Source: Nanobdellota archaeon (GTDB lineage: Archaea > Aenigmatarchaeota > Aenigmatarchaeia > Aenigmatarchaeales > SZUA-1535). From it: a stretch of 34,265 bases of DNA. Position 1 is the stretch's first letter. Each line of letters begins with the position of its first letter. Positions 2-27,009 of this stretch are shown here, piece by piece. A program made the translations under genes and the position numbers. The notes beneath the pieces are model-generated. The model did no database searches, was not told the DNA's origin, and worked only from the letters and a program-made list of their open reading frames with translations. The DNA is taken from assembly GCA_015661515.1 (NCBI GenBank), contig DQVX01000067.1, forward strand, positions 1 to 34,265, in the 5' to 3' direction.

Positions 2-1036
2 GACTTTTTAGTAAAACAAAGTAAAGAACATGAAATTTTGGAATTTATATTAACAAAAAACAAAAAATTTGTTTTCTTAGATGAAGTTCAAAACTTAGAA
101 AATTGGGAATCCTTAGTTAGAACATTACTGAATCAGGGCTATAAAGTTTTTATCATAGGCTCAAGCTCAAAACTATTAAGCAAAGAAATAGCAACTCAAC
201 TAAGAGGAAGAAGCTTGAGTTATTTACTTTTGCCCTTTTCATTTAAAGAATTTTTAAAAGCTAAAAATTTTAAAACAAACGGTTTCATAACCTTTGAGAA
301 AAAAGGCAGAATTATGGAGTATTTAAAAGATTATATGTATTTTGGAGGCTATCCTGAAATAGTTTTAAAGGAAATAGAAAAAGAGAAGTATTTAAAGGAA
401 ATAATAGAATTAGTGTTTTTTAAAGATTTTGTAGAAAGAAAAAATATAAAAAACATAAAGGTAGCAAAATTGATTTTCGAGTATTTACTACAAAACTATA
501 CCAAAGAAATTTCTCTTTCAAGAATAAAAAATTATTTAAACAGCTTGAATCTAAAACCAAACTTAGAAACAGTTTCAAATTATCTTCATGATTTAGAAGA
601 TACCTTTTCAATTTTTCTTATTAATAAATTCGATTACAAAGTTCATTTAAGAGAATCCTGGCCTAAAAAAGTTTATTTGGTAGATAATGGCTTGCATTTA
701 CCCTTTAGATTTAGCGATGATAAAGGAAAACTAATGGAAAACTTAGTTTTCTTACATTTGAAAAGACAGGAAAACGAAAAACCTTTCCAAGAAATCTATT
801 ACTACAAAACAAAAAACAACAAAGAAATAGACTTTCTTGTTAAAAACAAAAATAAAATAGAACTAATTGAGGTTTGCTATGAATTTGATGAAGATCATAA
901 GAAAAAACTAATCAAAGCAATGAACGAACTAAAACTAAAAGAAAGCTTTTGCATTACATGGGATGAAGAAGAAATAATAGAAGAAAAAGGAAAGAAAATA
1001 ATGCTTATTCCTCTTTGGAAATGGTTGTTATGTTAA
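2..1036 (+). CDS. AAA+ ATPase of the DUF4143/COG1373 family, 5' end cut by window edge
   Basis: The frame of track ORF 38..1036 stays open back to base 2 (DFLVKQSKEHEILEF...). It aligns to the downstream paralog from its Walker B region onward (FLDEVQ vs LLDEIQ; shared GSSSKLLSKEIATQLRGRSLSYLLLP; shared C-terminal IPLWKWLL). The Walker A part must lie left of the window. Confidence 0.8.
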   Translation, partial: DFLVKQSKEHEILEFILTKNKKFVFLDEVQNLENWESLVRTLLNQGYKVFIIGSSSKLLSKEIATQLRGRSLSYLLLPFSFKEFLKAKNFKTNGFITFEKKGRIMEYLKDYMYFGGYPEIVLKEIEKEKYLKEIIELVFFKDFVERKNIKNIKVAKLIFEYLLQNYTKEISLSRIKNYLNSLNLKPNLETVSNYLHDLEDTFSIFLINKFDYKVHLRESWPKKVYLVDNGLHLPFRFSDDKGKLMENLVFLHLKRQENEKPFQEIYYYKTKNNKEIDFLVKNKNKIELIEVCYEFDEDHKKKLIKAMNELKLKESFCITWDEEEIIEEKGKKIMLIPLWKWLLC

Positions 1037-10794: not shown

Positions 10795-11730
10795 ATGGAA
10801 GAAAGAAAACTTCAAGAAACAGGGCATGGAACATTGATTGTATCTCTTCCTAAGAAATGGATAAAATTAAACAAACTTCATAAAGGAGACATAGTAATAG
10901 TTACTTATTACAAGGATTATTTGATAATTTCTATACCAAAATCCGAAAAATTACAAACAACAATAAAATTTCTGGACATAGAAACAACTTTTAGAGAAAT
11001 AGTTTCAAAGTATATTCAAGGTTTTGATAAAATACATTTAGTTGCAAGTTCTTCACAATGGAAAGAATTAAAAAAAGTAAGGGAATATATACTAAAAAAA
11101 CTTCCTGGAGTTGAAGTAACAGATACTGAAAATGGTATACTTATAGAAATTGTAGCTTCTACAGAAAATTATGGAATAGAAAGAATTATTGAAAGAATAA
11201 ATTCGAATTTAAGATGGATGATATTATCAATAAAGCAAGCTTTAGAAACAAAAGATATAGAACTTCTTAAAGAAGTTTGTGAAAAAGATGATGAAATAGA
11301 TAGGTTAAATTTGCTTGCTAATAGATACATTTTTTCAATTCTCAAAAATCCAGAGTTTTTTAAGCTAAGAGAAAAAATTATATATTTCAAAATAATTTTA
11401 GATAAGTTTGAATCTATAGGAGATAGCATTGAATCTTTAGCAAGAAATTTGATTTTTGTAGTGCAAAATAAAAACTTGCCTATGAAAAAATTTTCAAAAG
11501 TTCTTACTTTAATGGAAAAGCTTATCTCAGATGTTATAAAGGCTTTTTTTAACTTGGATAAACAACTCGCAAACGAAATAATATTTCGAGGGAATAATTT
11601 TTCAAAAATAGCTTTGTCTCAATTGAGAAATATTTCGATTTCAGAGAACTTTGTTATAGCTGTGGAAAACCTTTCACATATTGGGCAATTATGTAAAGAA
11701 GCTGGGGAAGCTATAATAGATTTTGTTTAA
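10795..11730 (+). CDS. PhoU-family regulator with N-terminal AbrB/SpoVT DNA-binding domain
   Basis: GTLIVSLPKKWIKLNKLHKGDIV is a SpoVT/AbrB swapped-hairpin signature. It is followed by PhoU-like helical repeats (EKDDEIDRLNLL). Start taken at ATG 10795 (MEERK). The track TTG at 10759 would include the TATATAT promoter-like element. Confidence 0.75.
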   Translation: MEERKLQETGHGTLIVSLPKKWIKLNKLHKGDIVIVTYYKDYLIISIPKSEKLQTTIKFLDIETTFREIVSKYIQGFDKIHLVASSSQWKELKKVREYILKKLPGVEVTDTENGILIEIVASTENYGIERIIERINSNLRWMILSIKQALETKDIELLKEVCEKDDEIDRLNLLANRYIFSILKNPEFFKLREKIIYFKIILDKFESIGDSIESLARNLIFVVQNKNLPMKKFSKVLTLMEKLISDVIKAFFNLDKQLANEIIFRGNNFSKIALSQLRNISISENFVIAVENLSHIGQLCKEAGEAIIDFV

Positions 11731-12323
11731 GATTTTTCTTCACTTTCTTTTTCTATTTTCATTTCTTTTGGAAGTTCAGGTAAAATTCTTACTTGAATTC
11801 CAATTACTCCTGGTTTTAGTTCTGCTCTTGCATAACCTGTGCGTACAAGTGTTTCTGCGTATTCTCCAGCATATTTAAGATATCCTGCAAAGAATTTTTC
11901 TGTTCTTGCTAATTCTCCAGATAATTTTCCTGAAATAGTTATACAACAACCAGCTGCTTTTTCCATTATTCTTCTTAGCATTACATGAGCAACTTTTTTG
12001 TAATTAATTCCTCTTTCTAAAGCTCTTGCAATTTCTCTTGCCATTACTTGAGCATCAAGCTCAGGAACTTCTACTTCGCGAACATCAAGATTTATGTTAT
12101 CTAATCCAAAATTCTTTTTTATTTCACTTACTATTTTATCTATATTTCTTCCTCTTCTTCCTATAACTAAACCAGGGCGTGCTGCATAAACAACTATTCT
12201 TAGTCCTAAAGGTGTTCTTTGTATTTCGCAATGTGAATACCCAGCCCTATCAAAGAGTTTTTCTAAATATTCTTCAATTTGAGCTCTTTTTATTCCTTCT
12301 ACAATAAATTCTTTTTCTTTCAT
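11727..12323 (-). CDS. rps3: 30S ribosomal protein uS3
   Basis: KH-domain region LGLRIVVYAARPGLVIGRRGRNI. Follows uL22. Confidence 0.93.
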   Translation of the reverse strand: MKEKEFIVEGIKRAQIEEYLEKLFDRAGYSHCEIQRTPLGLRIVVYAARPGLVIGRRGRNIDKIVSEIKKNFGLDNINLDVREVEVPELDAQVMAREIARALERGINYKKVAHVMLRRIMEKAAGCCITISGKLSGELARTEKFFAGYLKYAGEYAETLVRTGYARAELKPGVIGIQVRILPELPKEMKIEKESEEKS

Positions 12324-12706
12324 CTTTTTTCCACCACTAATTTTATATGTGCTATTTTAAGTTTTGAACCAAAACTACTTTTTCTTCTTCTTCTATATAT
12401 AGTTGGACCTTTATTTACAGATAAACATTTTATCCATAAATTTTCTATATCGAATCCTCTAAATTTAGCATTTGCTTCTACACTTTTAAAAATTCTTAAA
12501 AGAGCTTTAGCTGTTTTTGTATAAAGCTTACCATTTACATTTACTTCTTCGTTTACAAGCTTTTCTAAAAATTCCTTCGCTTTTGTAAATTTTTTATATC
12601 TTCTTACAACATACCTTGCAAGCTCGACTCCTTTTTTCCATGAAATATTCTCGGTTGTTTGAGCATACACCATTTTTTCTTTATCAATAGGCACAGGATA
12701 TCCCAT
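12320..12706 (-). CDS. rpl22: 50S ribosomal protein uL22
   Basis: Sits between uS19 and uS3, with size and Lys/Arg-rich composition as expected. Start at ATG 12706, 6 nt after AGGTG. The track GTG at 12715 is inside the SD. Confidence 0.88.
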   Translation of the reverse strand: MGYPVPIDKEKMVYAQTTENISWKKGVELARYVVRRYKKFTKAKEFLEKLVNEEVNVNGKLYTKTAKALLRIFKSVEANAKFRGFDIENLWIKCLSVNKGPTIYRRRRKSSFGSKLKIAHIKLVVEKR

Positions 12707-12717
12707 AGGCAGCACCT

Positions 12718-13107
12718 TTACTTAACAGAGACGAACTTACTTGATCTTGTAGCACCTATTCCTGGTGCAGAGTGTTTTACAGGTTTGCGTGTAGGAGCAA
12801 ATTCTCCAAGTCTATGGCCTATCATTTCAGGTGTAATTTTTACAGGTACAAATTCTTTTCCGTTATGTACTCCAATTGTTAAACCAACCATTTCAGGAAG
12901 AATAACCATATCACGACAATGAGTTTTTATAAATTTATTTGTACCTTTATACTTTCTTATTTTTTGTAAAAGCTTTTTCTCTGCTTCAGTAAAACCACGG
13001 CGAAGTTTTCTTCTTATTCTTGCAGTTGTTATTTTAGCAAATTCATCTAATGACATTTTCTGAAGCTCTTCTAAAGTATAACCTTTATAGGTAAATACTC
13101 TAGCCAT
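12718..13107 (-). CDS. rps19: 30S ribosomal protein uS19
   Basis: Motifs [29 protein letters not shown] and [13 protein letters not shown]. Start at ATG 13107 (MARVF), 5 nt after GAGGTGA. Confidence 0.93.
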
Positions 13108-13112
13108 AATTA

Positions 13113-13826
13113 TCACCTCTTATCTTTACCTGTTTTTCTAATACCAGTTCGTCTTGCAGCTATACTACCAACTTTTGCTCCAGGAGGAGCATGTCTTGAA
13201 ACAGTTTTAGGCTGCCCTGGACCAGTTTGTCCACCAAAAGGATGATCTACAGCATTCATTTTACATGGACTTGTTCTTGGCCAAAGTTTATTTCGAGCTT
13301 TCATAGCATAATATTTTTGTCCTGCTTTTACAAACGGTTTATCTTTTCTTCCTCCACCTGCAGGAATTCCAACTGTTGCTAAGCATCTACCATCAAATTC
13401 TTTAAATTTACCAGAGGGCATTTTAACAACTACAGTTTCTTCTGTTTTTGAAACAACAACAGCATAACTTCCACTTGCTCTGCAAAATTTTGGTCCAGAG
13501 CCAGGAAATGCTTCTATTCCACAAACAGGCGTTCCTGTAGGAATTTGGGAAAGTGGTGCAATACTTTTCGATGAAAAACTTCCTATAGTTATAGTATCTC
13601 CTACCATTAGCCCTTCTGTAGCAATTATAAGTGTTTCTTTTCCATCAGGTAAAGTAACAATAGCTACAGGTGCATTTCTTCCAGGATCATGAACAATATC
13701 TTTAACAATAGCATTTACAGGTTGAGATACATTAATATACCTAACTTTTCCTACATATCTATGCGAAGGTGCACGGTAAGTAGGTGAGCCTTTCCCACGG
13801 CGTTGAGCTATAATCCTTTTTCCCAT
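13113..13826 (-). CDS. rpl2: 50S ribosomal protein uL2
   Basis: [15 protein letters not shown]-terminus and [18 protein letters not shown] motif. Start at ATG 13826. The track GTG at 13835 is inside the SD AGGTGGGG. Confidence 0.95.
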
Positions 13827-13836
13827 TATCCCCACC

Positions 13837-14106
13837 TTATATCATTCCTAATCTTGTAGCTATATCTGAAGCTTTATATTCTTTTGAAAGTTTTACATAA
13901 GCTTTTTTTCTACCTTTTCTATCTATAAGAGTTCTAACTTCTTCTACTTTTACTTCAAAAAGTTTTTCAACAGCTTTAGCTATTTGCTTTTTTGTTGCAC
14001 TTCTATCTACTATAAAAACTATTTTATTTTGCGTTTCTATAAGCCCAACAGCTTTTTCCGTGAGTAAAGGATATTTTATAATTTTAAACGGATCAAAGTT
14101 ATACAT
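13837..14106 (-). CDS. rpl23: 50S ribosomal protein uL23
   Basis: 89 aa with [12 protein letters not shown] and [24 protein letters not shown]. Sits between uL4 and uL2. Confidence 0.92.
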
Positions 14107-14108
14107 AG

Positions 14109-14909
14109 CTATTCACCTAACCTCTTTTTAAGCACCTCAATTGCAGATTTACTCCATATTGTAATTCTTCCTGGATGTGCTCCAGGAGCAAGATGCTCTG
14201 CATTAAGGTCTTTTGCCGAAACTACATCTACACCAGGAATATTTTCAGCAGCTTTGGCAAGAGGAACATTTTTATGGGAAACAACAAAAAGTACAGATTT
14301 TTTCTTTTTATATCTTCTCCCACGCATTTTACCTTTTCCTGCTCTTACTTTTTTCTTTTTAGCTCTTTCGAGTTCTTTTTCTAATCCTATTTTTTTCAAA
14401 AATTCTTCAACTTCTTTTGTTCTTTTAATTTGTTCAACAGAGTCTTCAACAATTATAGGAAGCTCACCTTCATATTTATGTCCACGTTTTTTAACAATTT
14501 CAGGAATGGCAGTAGCAGAAATTGCAGAAATAAGAGCTAATAGTTTTTCTTTTTTGTTTATTTTTTGTTTCCATATTTTCTCAGCTTTTGGAGGATGAGC
14601 TCTTCTTCCACCAACAGCTTGAGGCACAAATCTTGCTCTAAAGTTTAGATGAGGAGAAGAATTATGAATTCTTGGCACTCTTGCAAGCTCACGATTCATC
14701 ATTGTCCATCTTCTATCTCTTCTTCCGTGATAATGGGCGCTTGTTCTTTTTCCAGCAAGAGGATCTGCACCATAAGGTTGGCGTCTATTTGCTTGGAAAG
14801 CAAGAACACAACGTCTTATAATATCTTCTCTTACAGGTTGAGAGAAAAAGCTAGGTAAATTTATTTTTTCTACAACTTTTCCTTCTATGTTAAGTACATT
14901 TGCTTGCAT
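14109..14909 (-). CDS. rpl4: 50S ribosomal protein uL4
   Basis: 266 aa with [20 protein letters not shown] and [14 protein letters not shown] motifs. Sits between uL3 and uL23. Confidence 0.93.
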
Positions 14910-14923
14910 TTTTTAACACCTAA

Positions 14924-15886
14924 TTACTGTTTTGGTGCCAAAGATATATAAGCTATATTTATTGGTGGGTTCTTTTCAGGCGGTCTTATAGCAAAGCGCA
15001 TTCTTATTAATCTTTTCTTTGGTCCAGGAACAGAGCCTTTAACAAGCACGCCTATTGTTTTCAATATTCCATAATGAGGGAATCCGCCTTTTGGATTTAT
15101 TTCTTCAGGTTTAACTATTTTAATTATTCTTTTATTTAGCTCTGTTCTTGTTTGGAATCCATGCTGCCCAGCTGCTGGAACTGTTGGAAGTACACGTCCA
15201 CGACCTCGGCTACCAAGTGCTCCTACATGTCTATGCATTTGTTTCATTTTTCTTCCATGTAGCTTTATTCCAAATCTTTTTACAGGCCCTTCAAACCCAT
15301 GTCCTTTGGTTACTGCAGTTACATCTATCCAATCCCCTTCTTTAAATACATCTGTAACATTAAGTTGTTTTCCTAATAAACTTTTTGCATATTCAAACTG
15401 AGCCTCTGGTGAACCTGCAATACCTATTTCAAAAATTTCAGGTGTTTTTTTGAAAGTAGGATTAGTATGGCATATTAATCTAACTTTAGCAACTTTTTCA
15501 ATATCTACATCTTCAGGATTTATTTTAGGAATTTTTCCTTTTCCAAGCGTTGTTTTTCTTCTCAGCTTAGAATCAAGGTTTTCTGCAAATATGTCGCAAA
15601 GTGTTTTCAAACCTTCGTAAGTTTGCTTATAGCATCTAAATCCAAAAACAGTAAGAGGTGGGCATTCTATAACAGTAACAGGTGTAAAAACTTTCATTCC
15701 ATATGTAGGAGAGTTTTTATCTTCATCTACAAGTAGCACATGTGTCATTCCTGCTTTATATCCTGCGAATCCTAAAGCTTTTGGCTCACCTTCTATTTCT
15801 GGGAAATTTTGCCTTGGATAAATACGTTTAGCTCTTTTTCTTGGATAAAATGCTCTCGAACCTCTTTTTGGTCTACTTTCTCTCAT
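14924..15886 (-). CDS. rpl3: 50S ribosomal protein uL3
   Basis: RPKRGSRAFYPRKRA N-terminal motif, plus AGYKAGMTHV and TKGHGFEGPVKRFG. Start at ATG 15886, 5 nt after AGGTGA. The track GTG at 15895 is inside the SD. Confidence 0.95.
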   Translation of the reverse strand: MRESRPKRGSRAFYPRKRAKRIYPRQNFPEIEGEPKALGFAGYKAGMTHVLLVDEDKNSPTYGMKVFTPVTVIECPPLTVFGFRCYKQTYEGLKTLCDIFAENLDSKLRRKTTLGKGKIPKINPEDVDIEKVAKVRLICHTNPTFKKTPEIFEIGIAGSPEAQFEYAKSLLGKQLNVTDVFKEGDWIDVTAVTKGHGFEGPVKRFGIKLHGRKMKQMHRHVGALGSRGRGRVLPTVPAAGQHGFQTRTELNKRIIKIVKPEEINPKGGFPHYGILKTIGVLVKGSVPGPKKRLIRMRFAIRPPEKNPPINIAYISLAPKQ

Positions 15887-19705: not shown

Positions 19706-20149
19706 TCATATCATTCTTTCAAGAAGCTCATTTATAGCAGAACCTCTATATCCAAGTTCACCTTTTGGGTAATGTTCTTTTATAGATTTTTTAAATCCCT
19801 TGGAAGGAGGTGCAAGCCTAAAAACAGGTTTTAAACCAAGTCTTATTAATACTTTTGCCGGCTGTTCTTCACTCTTTTTAAGTTCTTGTAATACCTTTTC
19901 TACTTCTTCTTTACTAAGTCTTTTATCTCCAATTTTTCTTCCACGTTTTTCTATTAGCTTTTTCAATGTTTCTTCTGAAATTTCACCCCATGTAATATAA
20001 TCTTTAGCTTTTTGAAGCATTCCTTTTATAGAATCATTTAATTTAAAAAGCACACAATGATGTTTACGATGTAATCTAAGCATTTTTAAAGTATCTTGTA
20101 TATCCCTTCTTACACCAACTCTTCCACGAATCCTTATTACTGCAATCAC
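19706..20149 (-). CDS. rpl30: 50S ribosomal protein uL30
   Basis: (M)IAVIRIRGRVGVRRDIQDTLKMLRL. GTG start 6 nt after GGTGA, with a GTGA overlap onto the uS5 stop. Confidence 0.92.
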   Translation of the reverse strand: MIAVIRIRGRVGVRRDIQDTLKMLRLHRKHHCVLFKLNDSIKGMLQKAKDYITWGEISEETLKKLIEKRGRKIGDKRLSKEEVEKVLQELKKSEEQPAKVLIRLGLKPVFRLAPPSKGFKKSIKEHYPKGELGYRGSAINELLERMI

Positions 20150-20832
20150 TCTTTCTCACCTATTATACCAGATTTTATTTTAAATTCTTCTGGAAGCTTA
20201 TATCTATGAAGAGATTTAAGAGCATCAAAAACTGCTCTTACAAAATTTATTCTTGTTCTTGTATCTCCACGTGATTTCATCCATATATCTTGGATTCCTG
20301 CTAAGCGTAAAAGCTTTTTAATTTCATCAGGAGCACATAATCCAAGACCACGAGGAGCAGGCATTAGTTTTACTCTTACAGATCCACATTTTCCTGTAAC
20401 AGTTAATGGTATAGAATGTTTTTCTCCACATCTACATTCCCAAGAACCACAACCTCTTAAAATAGGAATAATATTTTTCTTAGCTTCTCTTACAGCTTTT
20501 TCATAAACTTCTCTTTGCTTACCCATAGGTCCTGCTCCAAGTCCTATTCCAACCCAACCATCTTCATTTCCAACTGCTACAAGCATAGAAATTTTATGTC
20601 TTCTTCCGCTCTTGTGCATGCGTGTTGTTCTTCTTACAGGAACTCTTTTCTTTCCTCCACCTTTTCCTGAAGAACCTCCTATAAGAAAGATTTCTACTTT
20701 AAGATTAGGAAGAAGAAAATCCACTATTTCAGGTTCCATTATTCTATACCCTTTAAGGAAAACCTCATCTAAGCTATTTATTTCTCCATTTAATACTTTT
20801 CTTCCTAACTCTGTTTTAGGAACCCATTCCAT
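20146..20832 (-). CDS. rps5: 30S ribosomal protein uS5
   Basis: GGGKKRVPVRRTTRMHKSGRR and VAVGNEDGWVGIGLG motifs. Start at ATG 20832 (MEWVPKTELGRKV), 6 nt after GAGGTG. Confidence 0.93.
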   Translation of the reverse strand: MEWVPKTELGRKVLNGEINSLDEVFLKGYRIMEPEIVDFLLPNLKVEIFLIGGSSGKGGGKKRVPVRRTTRMHKSGRRHKISMLVAVGNEDGWVGIGLGAGPMGKQREVYEKAVREAKKNIIPILRGCGSWECRCGEKHSIPLTVTGKCGSVRVKLMPAPRGLGLCAPDEIKKLLRLAGIQDIWMKSRGDTRTRINFVRAVFDALKSLHRYKLPEEFKIKSGIIGEKE

Positions 20833-21328
20833 TGAAAGCACCTCTTATTCTTTCAGCAACTTCTTTTACTTTTTTTTCCATATCTTCTGATATATGTTTT
20901 CCATATATTCTTTCTTCTGAAGGTAAAATTTCTTCTGAATGAGGAACATGAATTCCTGCATCAAGCACACCTTTAAGAGCAGCATATATTCTTCCTCCTT
21001 TTGTAGATGTTTGCAAACCTATATCTAAAACACCTTCTTTTATTCCAGCTTTTTTAGCTTTAAGCCCAGCTAATAAACCTGTTAAATATGCAGCAGGAAC
21101 ATTACCACAGTAATGATCCCAACCATATTTTGCAAGCTCTTTTGAAAATGCCTGAACTATAGTATGATCACCTTCTCCAGTCCATTTTATAAACTGTACA
21201 CGCATATGCTTTAAAGATTTTCTTACAACTACTCTTATTTTCCCTGATTTAAGCAATTTTAATCTTTTTCTATAATTAGTTTTTAGTTCTCTTCTTCTCC
21301 TATGTTTTACTACATATCCTTTTTTCAT
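20816..21328 (-). CDS. rpl18: 50S ribosomal protein uL18
   Basis: HRRRRELKTNYRKRLKLLKSGKIRVVVRKSLKHMRVQ. ATGA overlap with the eL19 stop. AGGTGA lies 6 nt upstream. Confidence 0.93.
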   Translation of the reverse strand: MKKGYVVKHRRRRELKTNYRKRLKLLKSGKIRVVVRKSLKHMRVQFIKWTGEGDHTIVQAFSKELAKYGWDHYCGNVPAAYLTGLLAGLKAKKAGIKEGVLDIGLQTSTKGGRIYAALKGVLDAGIHVPHSEEILPSEERIYGKHISEDMEKKVKEVAERIRGAFNGMGS

Positions 21329-21798
21329 TTGTTTTCACCTTCTTTTAAAAGCTCGTGGTCTTTTAGATATGCTAGCAGGTGCTTTTTGCTTCTAAACATA
21401 CCACCTTTTATTAAGCGGTATATTTTTCTATATACAGATCTTTCGATAACACCTTTATCACGCAAAATCTTAATAAGTTTTCTTTGTGCACGAACTTTTT
21501 TCAACCATTCAGTTTTTTCTCCTTGTCTTGCACCTTTTGCCCCTTTTCTACTTCCTGGTCCACGTCTTCTTCCTTTTTTCTTTTGAAGCATTTTTTTCTT
21601 TGCTTCAGGGTTTTTTTCTCTTTTTTCTTTAATTTTTTTGATTACACCTTTTTTAATAAGCTTTCTAACGTCTTCTCTTGTAATAGCTTTTTTTGCTTCT
21701 TCTACTTTTTCAGGATCTATCCATACTTTAGTTATACCACATTTAAGCAAATCAGCTGCCATTCTTTTTACAGTCCTTATATTTGTCATAACCATCAC
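21325..21798 (-). CDS. rpl19e: 50S ribosomal protein eL19
   Basis: RMAADLLKCGITKVWIDPEKVEE and KGRRRGPGSRKGAKGAR motifs. Start ambiguous among GTG 21798, ATG 21795 and ATG 21789. Confidence 0.9.
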   Translation of the reverse strand: MMVMTNIRTVKRMAADLLKCGITKVWIDPEKVEEAKKAITREDVRKLIKKGVIKKIKEKREKNPEAKKKMLQKKKGRRRGPGSRKGAKGARQGEKTEWLKKVRAQRKLIKILRDKGVIERSVYRKIYRLIKGGMFRSKKHLLAYLKDHELLKEGENK

Positions 21799-21956
21799 AT
21801 CATTTCTGGCTTTTCTTTTGAACCTTCGATAAGCACACCAAAATGGTTAAAAAATGCATTACAACATGGACATTTAAATACCTTAGGAGTTTTTTTCCAT
21901 TCTATACCTTCTATTCCACAATAAGGGCATTTATTTTCACTTACCATTAGGAACAT
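21795..21956 (-). CDS. small CPxCG-type zinc-ribbon protein (53 aa, not in ORF track)
   Basis: Hand translation: [56 protein letters not shown] 21956 lies 5 nt after GGTGA, the same spacing as at neighbouring genes. The ORF overlaps the last 20 nt of eL32, and its TGA (21797..21795) overlaps the eL19 start region. It fills the only sizeable gap in the operon. Confidence 0.6.
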   Translation of the reverse strand: MFLMVSENKCPYCGIEGIEWKKTPKVFKCPCCNAFFNHFGVLIEGSKEKPEMM

Positions 21957-22350
21957 TTTCTTCACCACATTTTAGAGGGTTTAATACTCTTAATCCAAGT
22001 TCTTGAGCTTTTTTCATTATTTCTATTCTTTTCTTTTTTCCAACTTGCGAAGCTATTCTTACTGCATGTATTTTAGGATCTAAACCTTCTAGATCATTAA
22101 CATTAAATACTCGTACTTCTTTAAGTCCTGATGGGTGTAAACCTCTTACAAGAGCAGGTGAACCATAACCAGGATGTGGAAGAAAACCTTTACCTTTTTC
22201 ATGTCTTCTTAATTTCGAGTGTCTTCCTTTAGGTCTGCGCCATTTTTCTCCTAATCTTGGAAATCTAAACCAATTTTGCCTAAGGAATTCTGGCTTTTTC
22301 CTTTTCATAATTCTTCTTATCTTAAGCAATCTTTTCAACTCCTCTATCAT
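21937..22350 (-). CDS. rpl32e: 50S ribosomal protein eL32
   Basis: [30 protein letters not shown] motif. ATGA overlap with the uL6 stop. Confidence 0.92.
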
Positions 22351-22877
22351 TCTTTACTCACCAAATAAATTCCATCTTGGAATACTCTTCTATCAAGATG
22401 TGTAACTCTTGTTGCTTGCTCTATATTAGCAGCTGTTTGCCCAACTTCTTCTTTATTTATACCTTCTACTATGATTTCTTGCCCATTAACTTTTACATTA
22501 ACATTTCCAACAATTTTAGCTATTCTAGGAACTTTTTCGCCCAAAAAGTTTTTAATTATTACTTTATCTCCTTTTACTTCCACAGTTATAGGAAAGTGAA
22601 CATAAACAGCTTTAAGCTTATATTTGTAACCTTGAGTAACACCTTTTATCATATTCCTTATATGTGCAGCTATTGTACCTACCATAGCTTTTATTTTTCT
22701 TCTATCAATTGAACTTTTTACAATAACATTTTTTTCTTGAATTTTTATTTCTATATAATCTCTATAAAGCGGTGAGCTAAAATCTCTTTCAAGCTCACCT
22801 TTTGGACCTTTAACTTTAACTTTAAGCCCTTCTACTTCAATTTCAACATTTTCTGGAATTTTTACTTTTTTCTCCAT
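22347..22877 (-). CDS. rpl6: 50S ribosomal protein uL6
   Basis: [27 protein letters not shown]. 176 aa, between uS8 and eL32. Confidence 0.93.
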
Positions 22878-22887
22878 TTAAATCACC

Positions 22888-23274
22888 TTAATAAACATAT
22901 ACCAAAAGTTTTCCTCCTATTCCTTTTTTCTTTGCTTCTTCGTGAGACATAACACCTTGAGAAGTTGTAACTATAAGTATCCCAAGTCCTGCAGCAGGTA
23001 AATATCTTCGCTCATATTTTTCAAATTCATCTTTTTTAACAGAAAATCTAGGTCTTATAGCACCACATTTATTTATTCTCCCTAAAAGCTCTATTTTTAT
23101 TTTTCCTCCTCTCCCATCTTCTATATATTCAAAATCTCCTATGTAATTATATCTTTGCATGACTTTAAGAATATTTTTTATCAAATTTGATGCTTTAACA
23201 ATTACAAAAGGTTTTCCTACTCTTTCAGCATTTGTTATTGCTGAAGCAAAATCCGAAACTAAGTCATGCTGCAT
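22888..23274 (-). CDS. rps8: 30S ribosomal protein uS8
   Basis: [18 protein letters not shown] and C-terminal [11 protein letters not shown]. Start at ATG 23274, 6 nt after AGGTG. The track GTG at 23283 is inside the SD. Confidence 0.93.
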
Positions 23275-23286
23275 AATTAACACCTT

Positions 23287-23475
23287 TTAGGAATATTTTT
23301 TAAAACCTATTTTTTTGGCAATTTCTCTAAAGCATTGTCTACAATACATTAGCCCATATTTTTTTATTATACCACCATATCTTCCACATCTTCTACACAT
23401 ATATAAAGCTTTTCCAGTTGTTCTTTTCTTAGGTGTTCCACCTAAAAACTGTTTCATTCTCTCTATTCTACTCAT
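23287..23475 (-). CDS. rps14: 30S ribosomal protein uS14 (zinc-binding type)
   Basis: 62 aa with CRRCGR...CRQCFRE. Confidence 0.93.
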
Positions 23476-23975
23476 ACTATCTCAACCCCGAATGTTTTTT
23501 TAACCCATTCTATGGCTTCATGTTTTTTAATTATATGCTTTTTACCAATTTTTCTTTTAAGCTTTTTACGTTTTACTCTATAGCCAGGTCTTTCAAGAGT
23601 TACACAAACATCCATACCTAAAATTCCTATTTCAGGATCAAATTTTACTCCAGGAATATCTATATATTCTTTAATACCGAATGAGAAATTTCCAAATTCA
23701 TCAAAACATGAAGCTGGAAGTTTGTTATCTATAGCCTTTAAAGCTTTTTTAAGAAATTCATAAGCTTTTTCTTTTCTTAATGTAACTTTTGCTCCTATAG
23801 GTCTATTTCTTGCCATCCCAAATGTAGTTCTTTTATGAGTTTTTGTAATTATAGGTTTTTGATTAGTAAGTTTTTCAAGAAGTTTTAAAGCTCTTTCAAG
23901 TTTTTCTCCTCCTCCACCACAACCTATATTAAGCGTGACTTTTTCTATTCTTATTTCTCTCATCGGGTTCTGCAT
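23472..23975 (-). CDS. rpl5: 50S ribosomal protein uL5
   Basis: [18 protein letters not shown] and [15 protein letters not shown] motifs. Confidence 0.93.
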
Positions 23976-23979
23976 AGTT

Positions 23980-24651
23980 TCACACCTTTATTAATGGTTT
24001 ATCTTCACCTACAACTATTATGTTTTTGAAAGGAGCCCAAAAGCTTTCTTCTCCTTCTATGAATACTCTATTAAGCTTCCATCCCCTTTCTATTTTTACA
24101 ATTTTTCCCATTTTTCCAGCATTTTTACCTGCAAAAATAAAGCATAGTACACCTTCTTTAAAAGGAATGTGCTTAACTATTTTTTGAGAAGGGACTTCAA
24201 TTAAAAGGGAATCTTGAGTATTATATGTATTTTCTCCTAAAATATTTCTTCCATCATGAAGATTAAACTGTATTCTACCACCCTTTACAGCTCTTTTACC
24301 TATTATTTTACAAATCTTTAACCTTTTTTCGCTTTCATCTATTTCTACAGGAAGTAGTTTTTTACCTCTTGGTAATATCCTATATGCTTTGTTCATTTTC
24401 GGAATTTCTACAACATCAAAAACACCAACTCCAAATTTATGATCCTTTATTACTCTACCATCAACAAGAATTTCACCTTTTTTAATAATTTTTTTAACCT
24501 CTTTATAAGTTTCTGCAAAGCCTAAATAATCTCTAATAAGCACAGCAAGAGCTATTGATCTTTCTAAAGGATGTGGTCCACGTGGAGCTACTGTATATTT
24601 GGCTTTTTTCTTTTCTTTTGCTAAAGGATGTGCCAATCTTTTTAATATCAT
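23980..24651 (-). CDS. rps4e: 30S ribosomal protein eS4
   Basis: LKRLAHP..., [24 protein letters not shown], and a KOW-like C-terminal part. ATGA overlap with the uL24 stop. Confidence 0.92.
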
Positions 24652-25031
24652 TCACTTCCACCTTTTCCCGCTCTTTCAATAATTTTAAGGCGCATTTTAT
24701 CGCTCATATCAGCTTTTATAATCATAAGGTTTGAAGGGTGAATAGGAACTTTTACTTCTTCTCCAGTTGATTTTTTTCTTGTAATTCCTTCTATATATAC
24801 TCTAAGCTTTTTTAAATCAACTTTTACAACTTTTCCTATCCTTCCCTTAAATTCGCCTCTGAGTATTTTAACTTCATCACCTTTTCTTACAGGTAAAGAC
24901 CTTCTTCCGAATTTTTCTCTCAACTCTTTGCTCAAATGAGCACTCATAAGTTTTTGCCTTTTATGGAGTGGGGCTTCATACAAAGCCTTTCTTTGTTTTC
25001 TTGGTTGTTTTGAATGTGTTTTGTTAGTCAT
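24648..25031 (-). CDS. rpl24: 50S ribosomal protein uL24
   Basis: [34 protein letters not shown] plus a KOW motif [16 protein letters not shown]. Confidence 0.93.
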
Positions 25032-25032
25032 A

Positions 25033-25431
25033 TTACACCACGATTGAAGCTATTTTTCCTATAGCAGGAAATCTTTCTACAGCTTCTTTAGCAACAGGGC
25101 CTTTTATTTCACTTCCTCTTGGTTCATTTTTTTCATTAATCAATACAGCAGCATTATCTTCAAATTTTATTCTCATTCCATCAGGTCTGCGATATTCTTT
25201 TTTCTGTCTTATTATAACAGCCATAACTACTTGTTTTCTTATTTTTGGATCTCCTTTTTTTACTGAACAGAAAACTATATCTCCAACTCCTGCTTTTGGA
25301 TATCTTCTTCTAACACCTTTATACCCACGTACAGCTATTATTTGCAAAACTTTTGCTCCTGTATTGTCTGCACATTTAAGATATGTGCCAACATTAAGGG
25401 CTTTTGTTACTTTAGAGCCTATACCCTTCAT
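25033..25431 (-). CDS. rpl14: 50S ribosomal protein uL14
   Basis: [17 protein letters not shown] and [22 protein letters not shown]. Confidence 0.94.
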
Positions 25432-25763
25432 TTTTCACCCCTTTTAAGCACTTCTATTACAACAAATGATTTTGTTTTTGATAACGGTCTACATTCCATA
25501 ATTTTTACTATATCTCCTTCTTTAGCATTAATACATTCAGGATTATAAGCAGCAACTTTTGTTTTTCTTCTTTCATATCTTTCATATTTTGGGACATAAT
25601 GAACATAATCCCATTGGACTATAGCTGTTTTATGAGCTTTTGCAGAGACAACTTTACCTACAAACATTCTTCCTCTTACAGGTAAAGTTCCGTGCCATGG
25701 ACATTTTGGGTCAGAGCATTCTTTTTCAGGAGGCTTTGCAGGTACACCAATATTTCTTACCAT
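25428..25763 (-). CDS. rps17: 30S ribosomal protein uS17
   Basis: [34 protein letters not shown] and [16 protein letters not shown]. Confidence 0.93.
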
Positions 25764-26047
25764 TTTCTCACCTTCTTTTTTATTCTTTCTTCAGGCCGTG
25801 CAAGTATAGCATTTCCATCTACTAGCACTTTTTTTCCATCAGGTAATATAAACATAAAGATTGTATCTTTTTTTGGAATTTTTTTAATTTTACTCTTTTC
25901 ATCTTCTATCCATAGCATATTTTTTGTTTCATTCACTACAAGCCCTTTTATCCCTTCATTAAGTTTATTTTTAGCTTGTTTCACCTCTACTTTTAAACCT
26001 ATAAGTTCATGTTGTAATATGTTTTTTGGTGTAATTTTAATTTTCAT
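25757..26047 (-). CDS. rnp1: RNase P protein component 1 (Rpp29/Pop4 homolog)
   Basis: [35 protein letters not shown] (Sm-like Rpp29 core). Canonical position between SUI1 and uS17. Confidence 0.85.
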
Positions 26048-26352
26048 TAAACTATCACTTCTATTTGTTCTTCATTAAATCCAAATTCTACAAGTAATTT
26101 TTTAACTTTTTCTCTATGATCTCCTTGTAATTCAAGTCTATCATTTTTATATGTTCCTCCACATGCAAGTTTTTTCTTAAGCTTTCTTAATAGTTCTTCA
26201 GGATTCATATCTTTGGAAATCCCTTCTATTATTGTTACATTTTTTCTATAACGCTTTTTTTCAAGATATATTTTAATTTTTGCAGATTCTTTTTCTATTG
26301 CTTCACATACACAGAGCTCTTTTGGCAAACCACATTTTTTACAAACTTCTAT
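26047..26352 (-). CDS. sui1: translation initiation factor aIF1 (SUI1); start codon unresolved (AUA 26352 proposed, TTG 26328 is the first canonical start)
   Basis: SUI1 core KIYLEKKRYRKNVTIIEGI...LACGGTYKNDRLELQGDHREKVKKLL. The frame is open back to the uL29 stop and encodes EVCKKCGLPKELCVCE upstream of the TTG. There is no in-frame ATG or GTG. ATA lies 6 nt after GGAGGTGA. Confidence 0.85.
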   Translation of the reverse strand: MEVCKKCGLPKELCVCEAIEKESAKIKIYLEKKRYRKNVTIIEGISKDMNPEELLRKLKKKLACGGTYKNDRLELQGDHREKVKKLLVEFGFNEEQIEVIV

Positions 26353-26358
26353 TTCATT

Positions 26359-26559
26359 TCACCTCCCTTTACGAAGATTTAATTCAGTAAGTATTCTTGC
26401 TATACATCTTCTAAGTTCTCTTATTCTTCCAGGATTTGTAACCGCTCCTACTACACGTTGAGCATTTAGTTTCATTAATTCAAGCCTAAATTCATTTAAT
26501 TTTTTCTTTAACTCTTCTTCACTCATTTTCTTTATTTCTTTTTTTCTTATTATCGCCAT
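26359..26559 (-). CDS. rpl29: 50S ribosomal protein uL29
   Basis: 66 aa with EIKKMSEEELKKKLNEFRLELMKLNAQ. Confidence 0.92.
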   Translation of the reverse strand: MAIIRKKEIKKMSEEELKKKLNEFRLELMKLNAQRVVGAVTNPGRIRELRRCIARILTELNLRKGR

Positions 26560-26565
26560 TTTAAT

Positions 26566-27009
26566 TCACCAATTTTTTGAATTTTCTATTATTTCAACAC
26601 TTCCTCCTGCAGCTTCTATTTTTTCTCTTGCTCTTTCTGTAACGTATATTGCTTTAATTTTAAGTGGTTTCGTTATAGTTCCACTAGAAATAACTTTTTT
26701 GTATCCAAGTTCTAACAAATTTATTTCTTCTTTTCCAAGTTTTGAAGCGAGAATATCAAGTTCTCTTAAAGTTATTACCTTTTCTCTTTCTCTCTTTCTT
26801 TTGATTGTTGGATACATTCCACGTTTAAAGCCTATTTTACCGAAATGTTGAGGATCTTGCATTAAAACCATTTGTCTTTTATGATCTTTACTACCAGCAA
26901 AACCTTTTCCTCCTCTACTACCTTTTCCACGGTGTTTTTTCTTTGAACCAAATCCATGAGTTTTACTTCCTCTAAGTTTTCTTACTTTTTTTCTTCTTCT
27001 CACAACCAT
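26566..27009 (-). CDS. rpl15: 50S ribosomal protein uL15
   Basis: RKLRGSKTHGFGSKKKHRGKGSRGGKGFAGS N-terminal motif. 147 aa. Unusually placed directly upstream of uL29. Confidence 0.9.
   Translation of the reverse strand: MVVRRRKKVRKLRGSKTHGFGSKKKHRGKGSRGGKGFAGSKDHKRQMVLMQDPQHFGKIGFKRGMYPTIKRKREREKVITLRELDILASKLGKEEINLLELGYKKVISSGTITKPLKIKAIYVTERAREKIEAAGGSVEIIENSKNW

Follow-up and report, generated by a model that had tools for sequence, protein, structure and literature searches.

How does an archaeon begin to translate its initiation factor aIF1 when the gene has no canonical start codon ahead of the first conserved cysteines of the protein? The question is raised by a 34,265-nucleotide stretch of DNA from a Nanobdellota archaeon (contig DQVX01000067.1), here called the window, with a G+C content of about 30%. 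The gene lies in a minus-strand operon running from 27009 to 19706 in the order uL15-uL29-aIF1-Rpp29-uS17-uL14-uL24-eS4-uL5-uS14-uS8-uL6-eL32-eL19-uL18-uS5-uL30, where uS17, uL14 and uL24 were named from matching genes in locus L110. All of its products except aIF1 and Rpp29 are ribosomal proteins. The order uL29-aIF1-Rpp29-uS17, a typical archaeal context, is the same in the window, in L001-L004 and in L110-L122. The features around the aIF1 start are as follows:

26359..26559, minus strand: uL29 gene, 66 aa, stop TGA at 26361..26359 (Pfam Ribosomal_L29, E=1.4e-19)
26359..26366, minus strand: Shine-Dalgarno (SD) sequence GGAGGTGA, 8 nt, read directly, inside the last uL29 codons
26353..26358, minus strand: 6-nt spacer AATGAA, containing an out-of-frame ATG at 26357..26355 (ATG AAA TAG)
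26350..26352, minus strand: ATA, the proposed near-cognate aIF1 initiation codon
26305..26343, minus strand: zinc-knuckle segment C-K-K-C-G-L-P-K-E-L-C-V-C, including TTG 26328..26326
26047..26352, minus strand: full-length aIF1/SUI1 CDS, 101 codons plus stop TAA 26049..26047
~26286..26077, minus strand: SUI1 domain (Pfam PF01253, residues 23-92)
25757..26047, minus strand: RNase P subunit Rpp29 gene (Pfam RNase_P-MRP_p29, E=3.2e-27)

The ribosomal-protein supercluster is split in the window (11727-15886 and 19706-27009); uL3-uL4-uL23-uL2-uS19-uL22-uS3 are not adjacent to uL29, and uL15 stands directly before uL29 rather than after uL30. Upstream of uL29, L003 and L004 have uS3, L001 has a radical-SAM gene and L112 has an ATPase gene. 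A MazG-family gene (L002:1805-2107) sits between uL14 and uL24 in the ribosomal-protein operon of L002 and is absent from the window. Two tandem genes of the window (38-1036 and 1090-2370) carry AAA_14 and DUF4143 domains; the N-terminal AAA part of the gene at 38-1036 is missing, or the gene is cut by the window edge. No tRNA genes were found within the window.

Read on the minus strand, the junction runs CGT AAA GGG AGG TGA AAT GAA ATA GAA GTT TGT AAA AAA TGT GGT TTG and goes on CCA AAA GAG CTC TGT GTA TGT GAA. Past the uL29 TGA, the same frame translates as N-E-I-E-V-C-K-K-C-G-L-P-K-E-L-C-V-C, and this TGA, which closes the aIF1 frame upstream, is itself part of the SD. The window sequence holds no ATG, GTG or TTG between the in-frame TGA and the first cysteine (Cys1). 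The first-pass annotation of this stretch had pointed to this arrangement, and our reading bears it out: aIF1 lacks a canonical start ahead of its first Cys pair; the frame of uL29 runs on past its stop into aIF1; TTG 26328 is the first canonical start in the ORF list and falls between both Cys pairs; the sole nearby ATG is out of frame, 1 nt past the SD; and the ATA follows the SD by 6 nt, a spacing usual for genes of the window. The M. jannaschii aIF1 N-terminus to which it had likened the cluster was also correct, as judged from the alignment to PDB 4MO0 and the published motif (PMC6237735).

The open reading frame matches PF01253 over residues 23-92 (E=1.1e-21; 77.5 bits, cutoff 25.5). Its best solved relative is M. 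jannaschii aIF1 (PDB 4MO0, E=8.9e-31), in an alignment that begins at query residue 2 and Mj residue 3; because it opens at query residue 2, the Cys cluster belongs to the match. The cluster, CKKCGLPKELCVC at 26343..26305, has the form CX2CGLPX3C(phi)C of Methanococcales-type aIF1 and is predicted to bind zinc. Published work found this zinc knuckle in 64% of 744 archaeal aIF1 sequences and about 0.8 Zn bound per protein in Mj-aIF1 (PMC6237735). We found 1733 aIF1 homologs, mostly 99-104 aa in length; those bearing names were mostly 'Candidatus Aenigmarchaeota/Aenigmatarchaeota' MAG proteins. The four knuckle cysteines showed no variation in an alignment of 51 homologs, and the ATA aligns with the Met of three-residue homolog N-termini, e.g., METC, MSIC and MAVC. 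In L042, L090 and protein P0067, a further CxxC pair precedes the canonical knuckle on its N-terminal side, e.g., MAEICPKCGGRLSGNVCSKCGLPPDLCVC, and suggests that the zinc-binding N-terminus may be duplicated or extended in these proteins.

We compared the junction with that of the same organism in other samples and of close relatives. An identical 93-aa aIF1 gene call was present on six contigs. Three contigs from different samples (SRR7792449, ERZ23486590 and SRR26701687) are 99.8-99.9% identical to the window, and all three assemblies give the junction as exactly GGGAGGTGAAATGAAATAGAAGTTTGT, as in the window. Five species-level relatives, i.e., L001 (NCBI GCA_964409305.1), L002 (Logan), and L005, L006 and L007/L008 (JGI metagenomes), encode aIF1 proteins with 82-90% amino acid identity to that of the window. 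Their junctions follow the pattern GGAGGTGA-AA[T/A/G]GAA-ATA-GAR-RTN-TGY, with an in-frame TGA three codons before the ATA, and none has a canonical start ahead of Cys1. No near-cognate codon other than the ATA is conserved in the stretch from the in-frame TGA to Cys1. Between the ATA and the second Cys pair, close relatives differ by synonymous or conservative codon changes (V/I, K/R); such changes, together with the invariant cysteines, indicate that the knuckle is translated and that the start lies between the TGA and Cys1.

The first-pass annotation had left three options, i.e., initiation at AUA, a weak UUG start and a base-call error. The alignment of aIF1 orthologs, in which the ATA, the 8-nt SD and the upstream stop are conserved, favours AUA, and the comparison excludes the other two. 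We give next to no credence to a sequencing or assembly error (ATG misread as ATA, or the loss of an A that throws ATG 26357 out of frame), for all that the site is A-rich and an earlier sequence of S. solfataricus aIF1 wrongly showed a frameshifted gene (PMC8211752), because four assemblies agree and the same ATA and frame recur in 11 other species-level loci; moreover, in place of this ATG, L001 and L006 have AAG and L002, L005 and L007 have AGG, as an ordinary codon of a longer uL29 frame (...GGE[KR]K-TAG).

Initiation at TTG 26328 would yield a 93-residue aIF1 without the first Cys pair. This is the first canonical start, and the closest database proteins, P0001 (NCBI/ENA) and P0002 (Logan), were called from the equivalent TTG as 93-aa aIF1. 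However, the CGLP Leu codon is TTG only in the window, L001 and L002; it is TTA in L005 and L007/L008 and CTG in L006, and in these last three relatives no in-frame canonical start follows before codon 38, which lies within the SUI1 domain. The SD scan found no SD ahead of the TTG, and half a knuckle could not bind Zn. Orthologs that start uniformly at this Leu or Met, with a variable upstream Cys pair, were not found; the TTG varies and the cysteines do not. We therefore reject the TTG start as very improbable, since the codon is not conserved.

It is similarly hard to credit recoding, i.e., a uL29-aIF1 fusion made by TGA readthrough or frameshifting, or a -1 shift from the mini-ORF ATG AAA TAG. 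The two genes do share a frame, separated by TGA, in the window and L007/L008. They stand in different frames in L001, L002, L005 and L006, however, and 73-179 nt apart in a subclade with CTG at the start position; because the frame relations differ among relatives, no single event fits. Nor is the mini-ORF ATG conserved, a further ground for rejection, and a slippery heptamer is absent.

The placement of the ATA is that of a start codon. In the SD scan, genes of the window carry [A]GGTG[A] 4-8 nt before the start, with a mode of 6-7. These SD-led starts comprise ~25 ATG codons, one GTG (uL30) and, at aIF1 alone, ATA; the GGTG-ATA spacing of 7 nt is the modal spacing of the ATG genes. The scan recovered the full GGAGGTGA context at three gene starts only (rows 4719, 8577 and 26363). 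Across the 18 loci of the tree described below and L056, SD-led starts besides aIF1 numbered 67 ATG, 5 GTG and 4 TTG, and every real ATA or CTG start with an SD belonged to aIF1. The occurrence of ATA at the aIF1 start exceeds chance. Compared by eye only, SD strength showed no clear difference between near-cognate and ATG-type aIF1 genes. A weak predicted hairpin that would mask the SD by pairing the uL29 codons (A)AUCUUC, CCUCC in relatives, with the GGAGG of the aIF1 SD (26368-26385 with 26361-26366) had z values of -1.2 to -1.8, indistinguishable from shuffled controls; it is absent in L006, and compensatory changes were not seen.

In six other genes of the window, an in-frame GTG is the GGTG of the gene's own SD, and an SD-spaced ATG follows 9 nt downstream (GTG/ATG at 13835/13826, 12715/12706, 23283/23274, 20841/20832, 13116/13107 and 15895/15886). 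Start prediction in this genome is thus systematically led astray by the SD-embedded GTG, at which a mechanical ORF caller starts. In L001, the closest relative, the aIF1A gene (885-1208; Pfam eIF-1a) begins with TTG, 6 nt after GGTGA, and so is a second initiation-factor gene with a non-AUG start.

The ATA start extends beyond the close relatives. We inspected the best 80 of more than 600 genome pattern matches, and all the sequences compared come from metagenome assemblies. Among the matches listed, a second ATA group comprises L056, L115/L116, L117, L118/L119, L120 and L121/L122, from sources that include groundwater MAGs and a TARA sample. It follows the pattern GGTG-N7-ATA-[GCA/GCC/GCT/ACA]-[GTT/GTG/ACA]-TGY, with the ATA three codons before Cys1. 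The distance from GGTG to ATA was exactly 7 nt in 12/12 ATA-type loci among the matches listed. A point against the ATA start in L117 is a GTG that stands immediately before Cys1.

A rough neighbour-joining tree of the window clade and its sister clade (18 genes) placed this codon in a wider setting. At the Met position, these genes have ATA in six cases, CTG in ten, GTG in one (L038) and ATG in one (L037), so that ATA or CTG occupies it in 16/18. The CTG loci belong to the sister clade (L003, L004, L030, L031, L032, L034, L050, L078, L113 and L114). A canonical start is absent in L004, L114 and L078, where CTG is the only possible start; in L113, a TAA lies immediately 5' of the CTG, and there too no other start is possible. 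The other six CTG loci have an in-frame GTG inside GGTGA, with the CTG 5 nt past GGTGA; this GTG could formally be the start, but we read it as part of the SD because the same pattern marks the SD in genes of the window. CTG makes up 0-30% of the Leu codons in CTG loci (0/49 in L050), yet it stands at the start position in 10/10. Conservation of ATA is by itself weaker evidence, since ATA makes up ~50% of the Ile codons in these loci. The number of independent origins of ATA and CTG is uncertain, as the tree rests on ~100 residues. Most sampled archaeal aIF1 genes among the matches listed begin with ATG; outside Aenigmatarchaeota-type loci, ~10 of roughly 57 in a bare tally of these matches start with GTG or TTG, which we judged unremarkable.

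We also considered a reassignment of AUA to Met and rejected it informally: ATA accounts for about 56% of the Ile codons of the window, and the ATA codons internal to aIF1 match Ile or Val in homologs, which likewise disfavours it.

These comparisons, which draw on genomes of uncultivated organisms, show a coding knuckle, the lack of a canonical start, and an ATA or CTG that is conserved together with its SD spacing and confined to this gene. The best explanation, which we hold with good though not full confidence, is an SD-directed AUA start that would be weak, probably sensitive to aIF1 and often overlapping the uL29 stop. The 8-nt SD GGAGGUGA within the last uL29 codons would pair with the 3' end of 16S rRNA and, by the usual spacing of 6-7 nt, bring the AUA (26352..26350) into the P site. 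Initiator Met-tRNA would then read AUA with a third-position mismatch; that initiation occurs at AUA by the initiator tRNA is, in our view, highly likely. Ribosomes ending uL29 6 nt upstream would probably feed the site. The product would be the full 101-residue aIF1 including the N-terminal zinc knuckle, and in sister lineages CUG would take the place of AUA.

An AUA start, being weak, would keep aIF1 at a low level within a highly expressed ribosomal-protein operon, together with Rpp29. The aIF1 stop and the Rpp29 ATG (26047..26045) overlap as TAATG (26045-26049), and Rpp29 lacks an SD of its own; from this overlap and the missing SD, Rpp29 is probably translated only by ribosomes leaving aIF1. 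As aIF1 would destabilise initiation complexes on non-AUG codons, its own synthesis might fall when it is abundant and rise when it is scarce, a negative feedback like that of IF3 on the infC AUU. By analogy with that system we consider such autoregulation by aIF1 an evenly balanced prospect. That a DPANN (Aenigmatarchaeota-type) lineage kept AUA/CUG because aIF1 represses its own near-cognate start is a more tentative proposal, to which we give somewhat less than an even chance.

The main rival differs from our preferred explanation in the last step alone: the AUA or CUG start is real and sets a low, fixed translation of aIF1 and Rpp29, with no feedback from aIF1. The operon, in which these two are the only non-ribosomal products, is very highly expressed, the TAATG arrangement would pass a low rate on to Rpp29, and near-cognate starts work at ~1-2% of AUG in E. 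coli (PMC5499595), all of which speaks for a static brake. Against it, GTG, TTG or a weaker SD could lower expression equally, and the aIF1 SD is among the strongest of the window. Moreover, some feedback would be automatic if aIF1 discriminates against non-AUG codons, as it does in vitro against AUU. We hold a purely static role to be possible but doubtful.

A second alternative is that ribosomes finishing uL29 restart on aIF1 without a full new cycle of initiation, so that the identity of the codon matters little; the ATA would then be a by-product of changes in the overlapping uL29 stop (ATGA to ATAG or ATAA). The uL29 stop overlaps the aIF1 start by 4 nt (ATAG, ATAA or CTGA) in nine of the loci listed (L001, L002, L005, L006, L056, L117, L120, L121 and L078) and precedes it by 1-6 nt in four others: the window (6 nt), L115, L118 and L030. 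Overlapping gene pairs are reportedly coupled in archaea, which counts in favour of this reading. Since the uL29 stop overlaps the ATA in most relatives, translational coupling is probably part of the mechanism, and coupling to uL29 termination is likely wherever the genes abut. However, the ATA is retained in the window, L007/L008 and L115 although the uL29 stop has moved off it. In L003, L004, L031, L034, L113 and L114, uL29 ends 73-179 nt upstream of the CTG; these genes are uncoupled, yet the CTG and an SD of their own persist, so that coupling to uL29 is not the general reason for the unusual codon. The constant 7-nt spacing also points to a codon placed by the SD. Reinitiation as the main cause therefore strikes us as unlikely, but it is compatible with the SD-directed AUA start as a contributing route.

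The uL29 end itself occurs in two forms. In L001, L002, L005 and L006, uL29 is three codons longer than in the window and ends in a TAG overlapping the ATA. A 1-nt difference, GGG at 26365-26367 of the window versus GG in L001 (2906-2911) and L002, alters the uL29 C-terminus. The 66-aa protein with its TGA inside the SD is found in the window, L007/L008 and L110-L112, and the 69-aa protein with the TAG overlap in L001 and L002, the same overlap being present in L005 and L006. The difference in length is real, since both forms recur in independent assemblies.

The AUA reading bears on annotation. For L056 and L117, the CDS in the NCBI records already begins with this ATA, which provides a precedent. 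Among the best 120 protein clusters, 6 are cut short within the zinc knuckle, at MPKELC, and ~16 more carry Leu where Met usually stands, in an N-terminus of the form [M/V]-x-x-L-x-E-[I/V]-C; the latter probably begin at a GTG that merely belongs to the SD. On this reading, gene callers that accept only ATG, GTG and TTG would mis-annotate an essential factor, a weak point of automated start prediction in SD-rich, AT-rich archaeal genomes. To our knowledge, AUA and CUG are not established archaeal start codons. If the AUA reading is true, aIF1 would be the first archaeal gene with a conserved AUA/CUG start, on the very factor that polices start-codon choice; AUA and CUG would be genuine, regulated archaeal start codons; and the aIF1 mRNA would offer a natural substrate for measuring aIF1 stringency against near-cognate codons. 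The autoregulation principle of IF3 and eIF1 would then extend to a third domain, with one feedback logic in all three: IF3 and AUU, eIF1 and a weak Kozak context, aIF1 and AUA/CUG.

Published work bears on the discrimination that this logic needs. S. solfataricus aIF1 rejects AUU mRNA in vitro, as cited in PMC4705826 and PMC6237735; the discrimination reported for aIF1 thus concerns AUU in Sulfolobus rather than AUA, CUG or the lineage of the window. A near-cognate start is no guarantee of sensitivity to the factor, since IF3 had only a weak effect on an AUA mRNA in E. coli extracts (PMC5499595). Ribosome profiling of H. volcanii saw near-cognate sites and set them aside (PMC7261190). Full-text literature searches found no description of a near-cognate start or of autoregulation for archaeal aIF1; Monestier 2018 mentions only the eukaryotic eIF1 loop.

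Three known systems resemble the aIF1 start. Coupled ATGA and TAATG gene pairs share with it the 4-nt overlap seen in most relatives and an SD inside the upstream gene, and aIF1-Rpp29 is itself a classical TAATG pair; unlike in such pairs, the restart codon would not be ATG, GTG or TTG, the uL29 stop of the window stands 6 nt before the start, and the two genes are not adjacent at all in one CTG subclade. Bacterial infC starts with AUU/AUC and is autoregulated by IF3 (PMC5499595). Here too, the gene of a fidelity factor would itself start non-canonically, at a codon conserved across species behind a normal SD (PMC5499595, PMC4705826), and negative feedback would be an expected consequence. The differences are that the SUI1 fold of aIF1 is unrelated to IF3, that the codons are AUA/CUG rather than AUU/AUC, that the feature is seen in Aenigmatarchaeota-type lineages and not in all archaea, and that aIF1 lies within a ribosomal-protein operon, where its start often overlaps the stop of uL29. 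In eukaryotes, the ortholog eIF1 has the same role in start-codon fidelity, and the start of its own mRNA is likewise suboptimal: eIF1 is autoregulated through a poor-context AUG (PMC4705826; Ivanov et al. 2010, as cited in PMC6237735 and PMC4705826), such that a high level of the factor reduces its own synthesis. The eIF1 start, however, is an AUG in a weak Kozak context reached by scanning, whereas the putative aIF1 start is a non-AUG codon positioned by a strong SD. The possible parallel with the autoregulation of infC and eIF1, which the first-pass annotation had proposed, is a reasonable analogy, and one that is strengthened because non-AUG starts persist across the whole clade.
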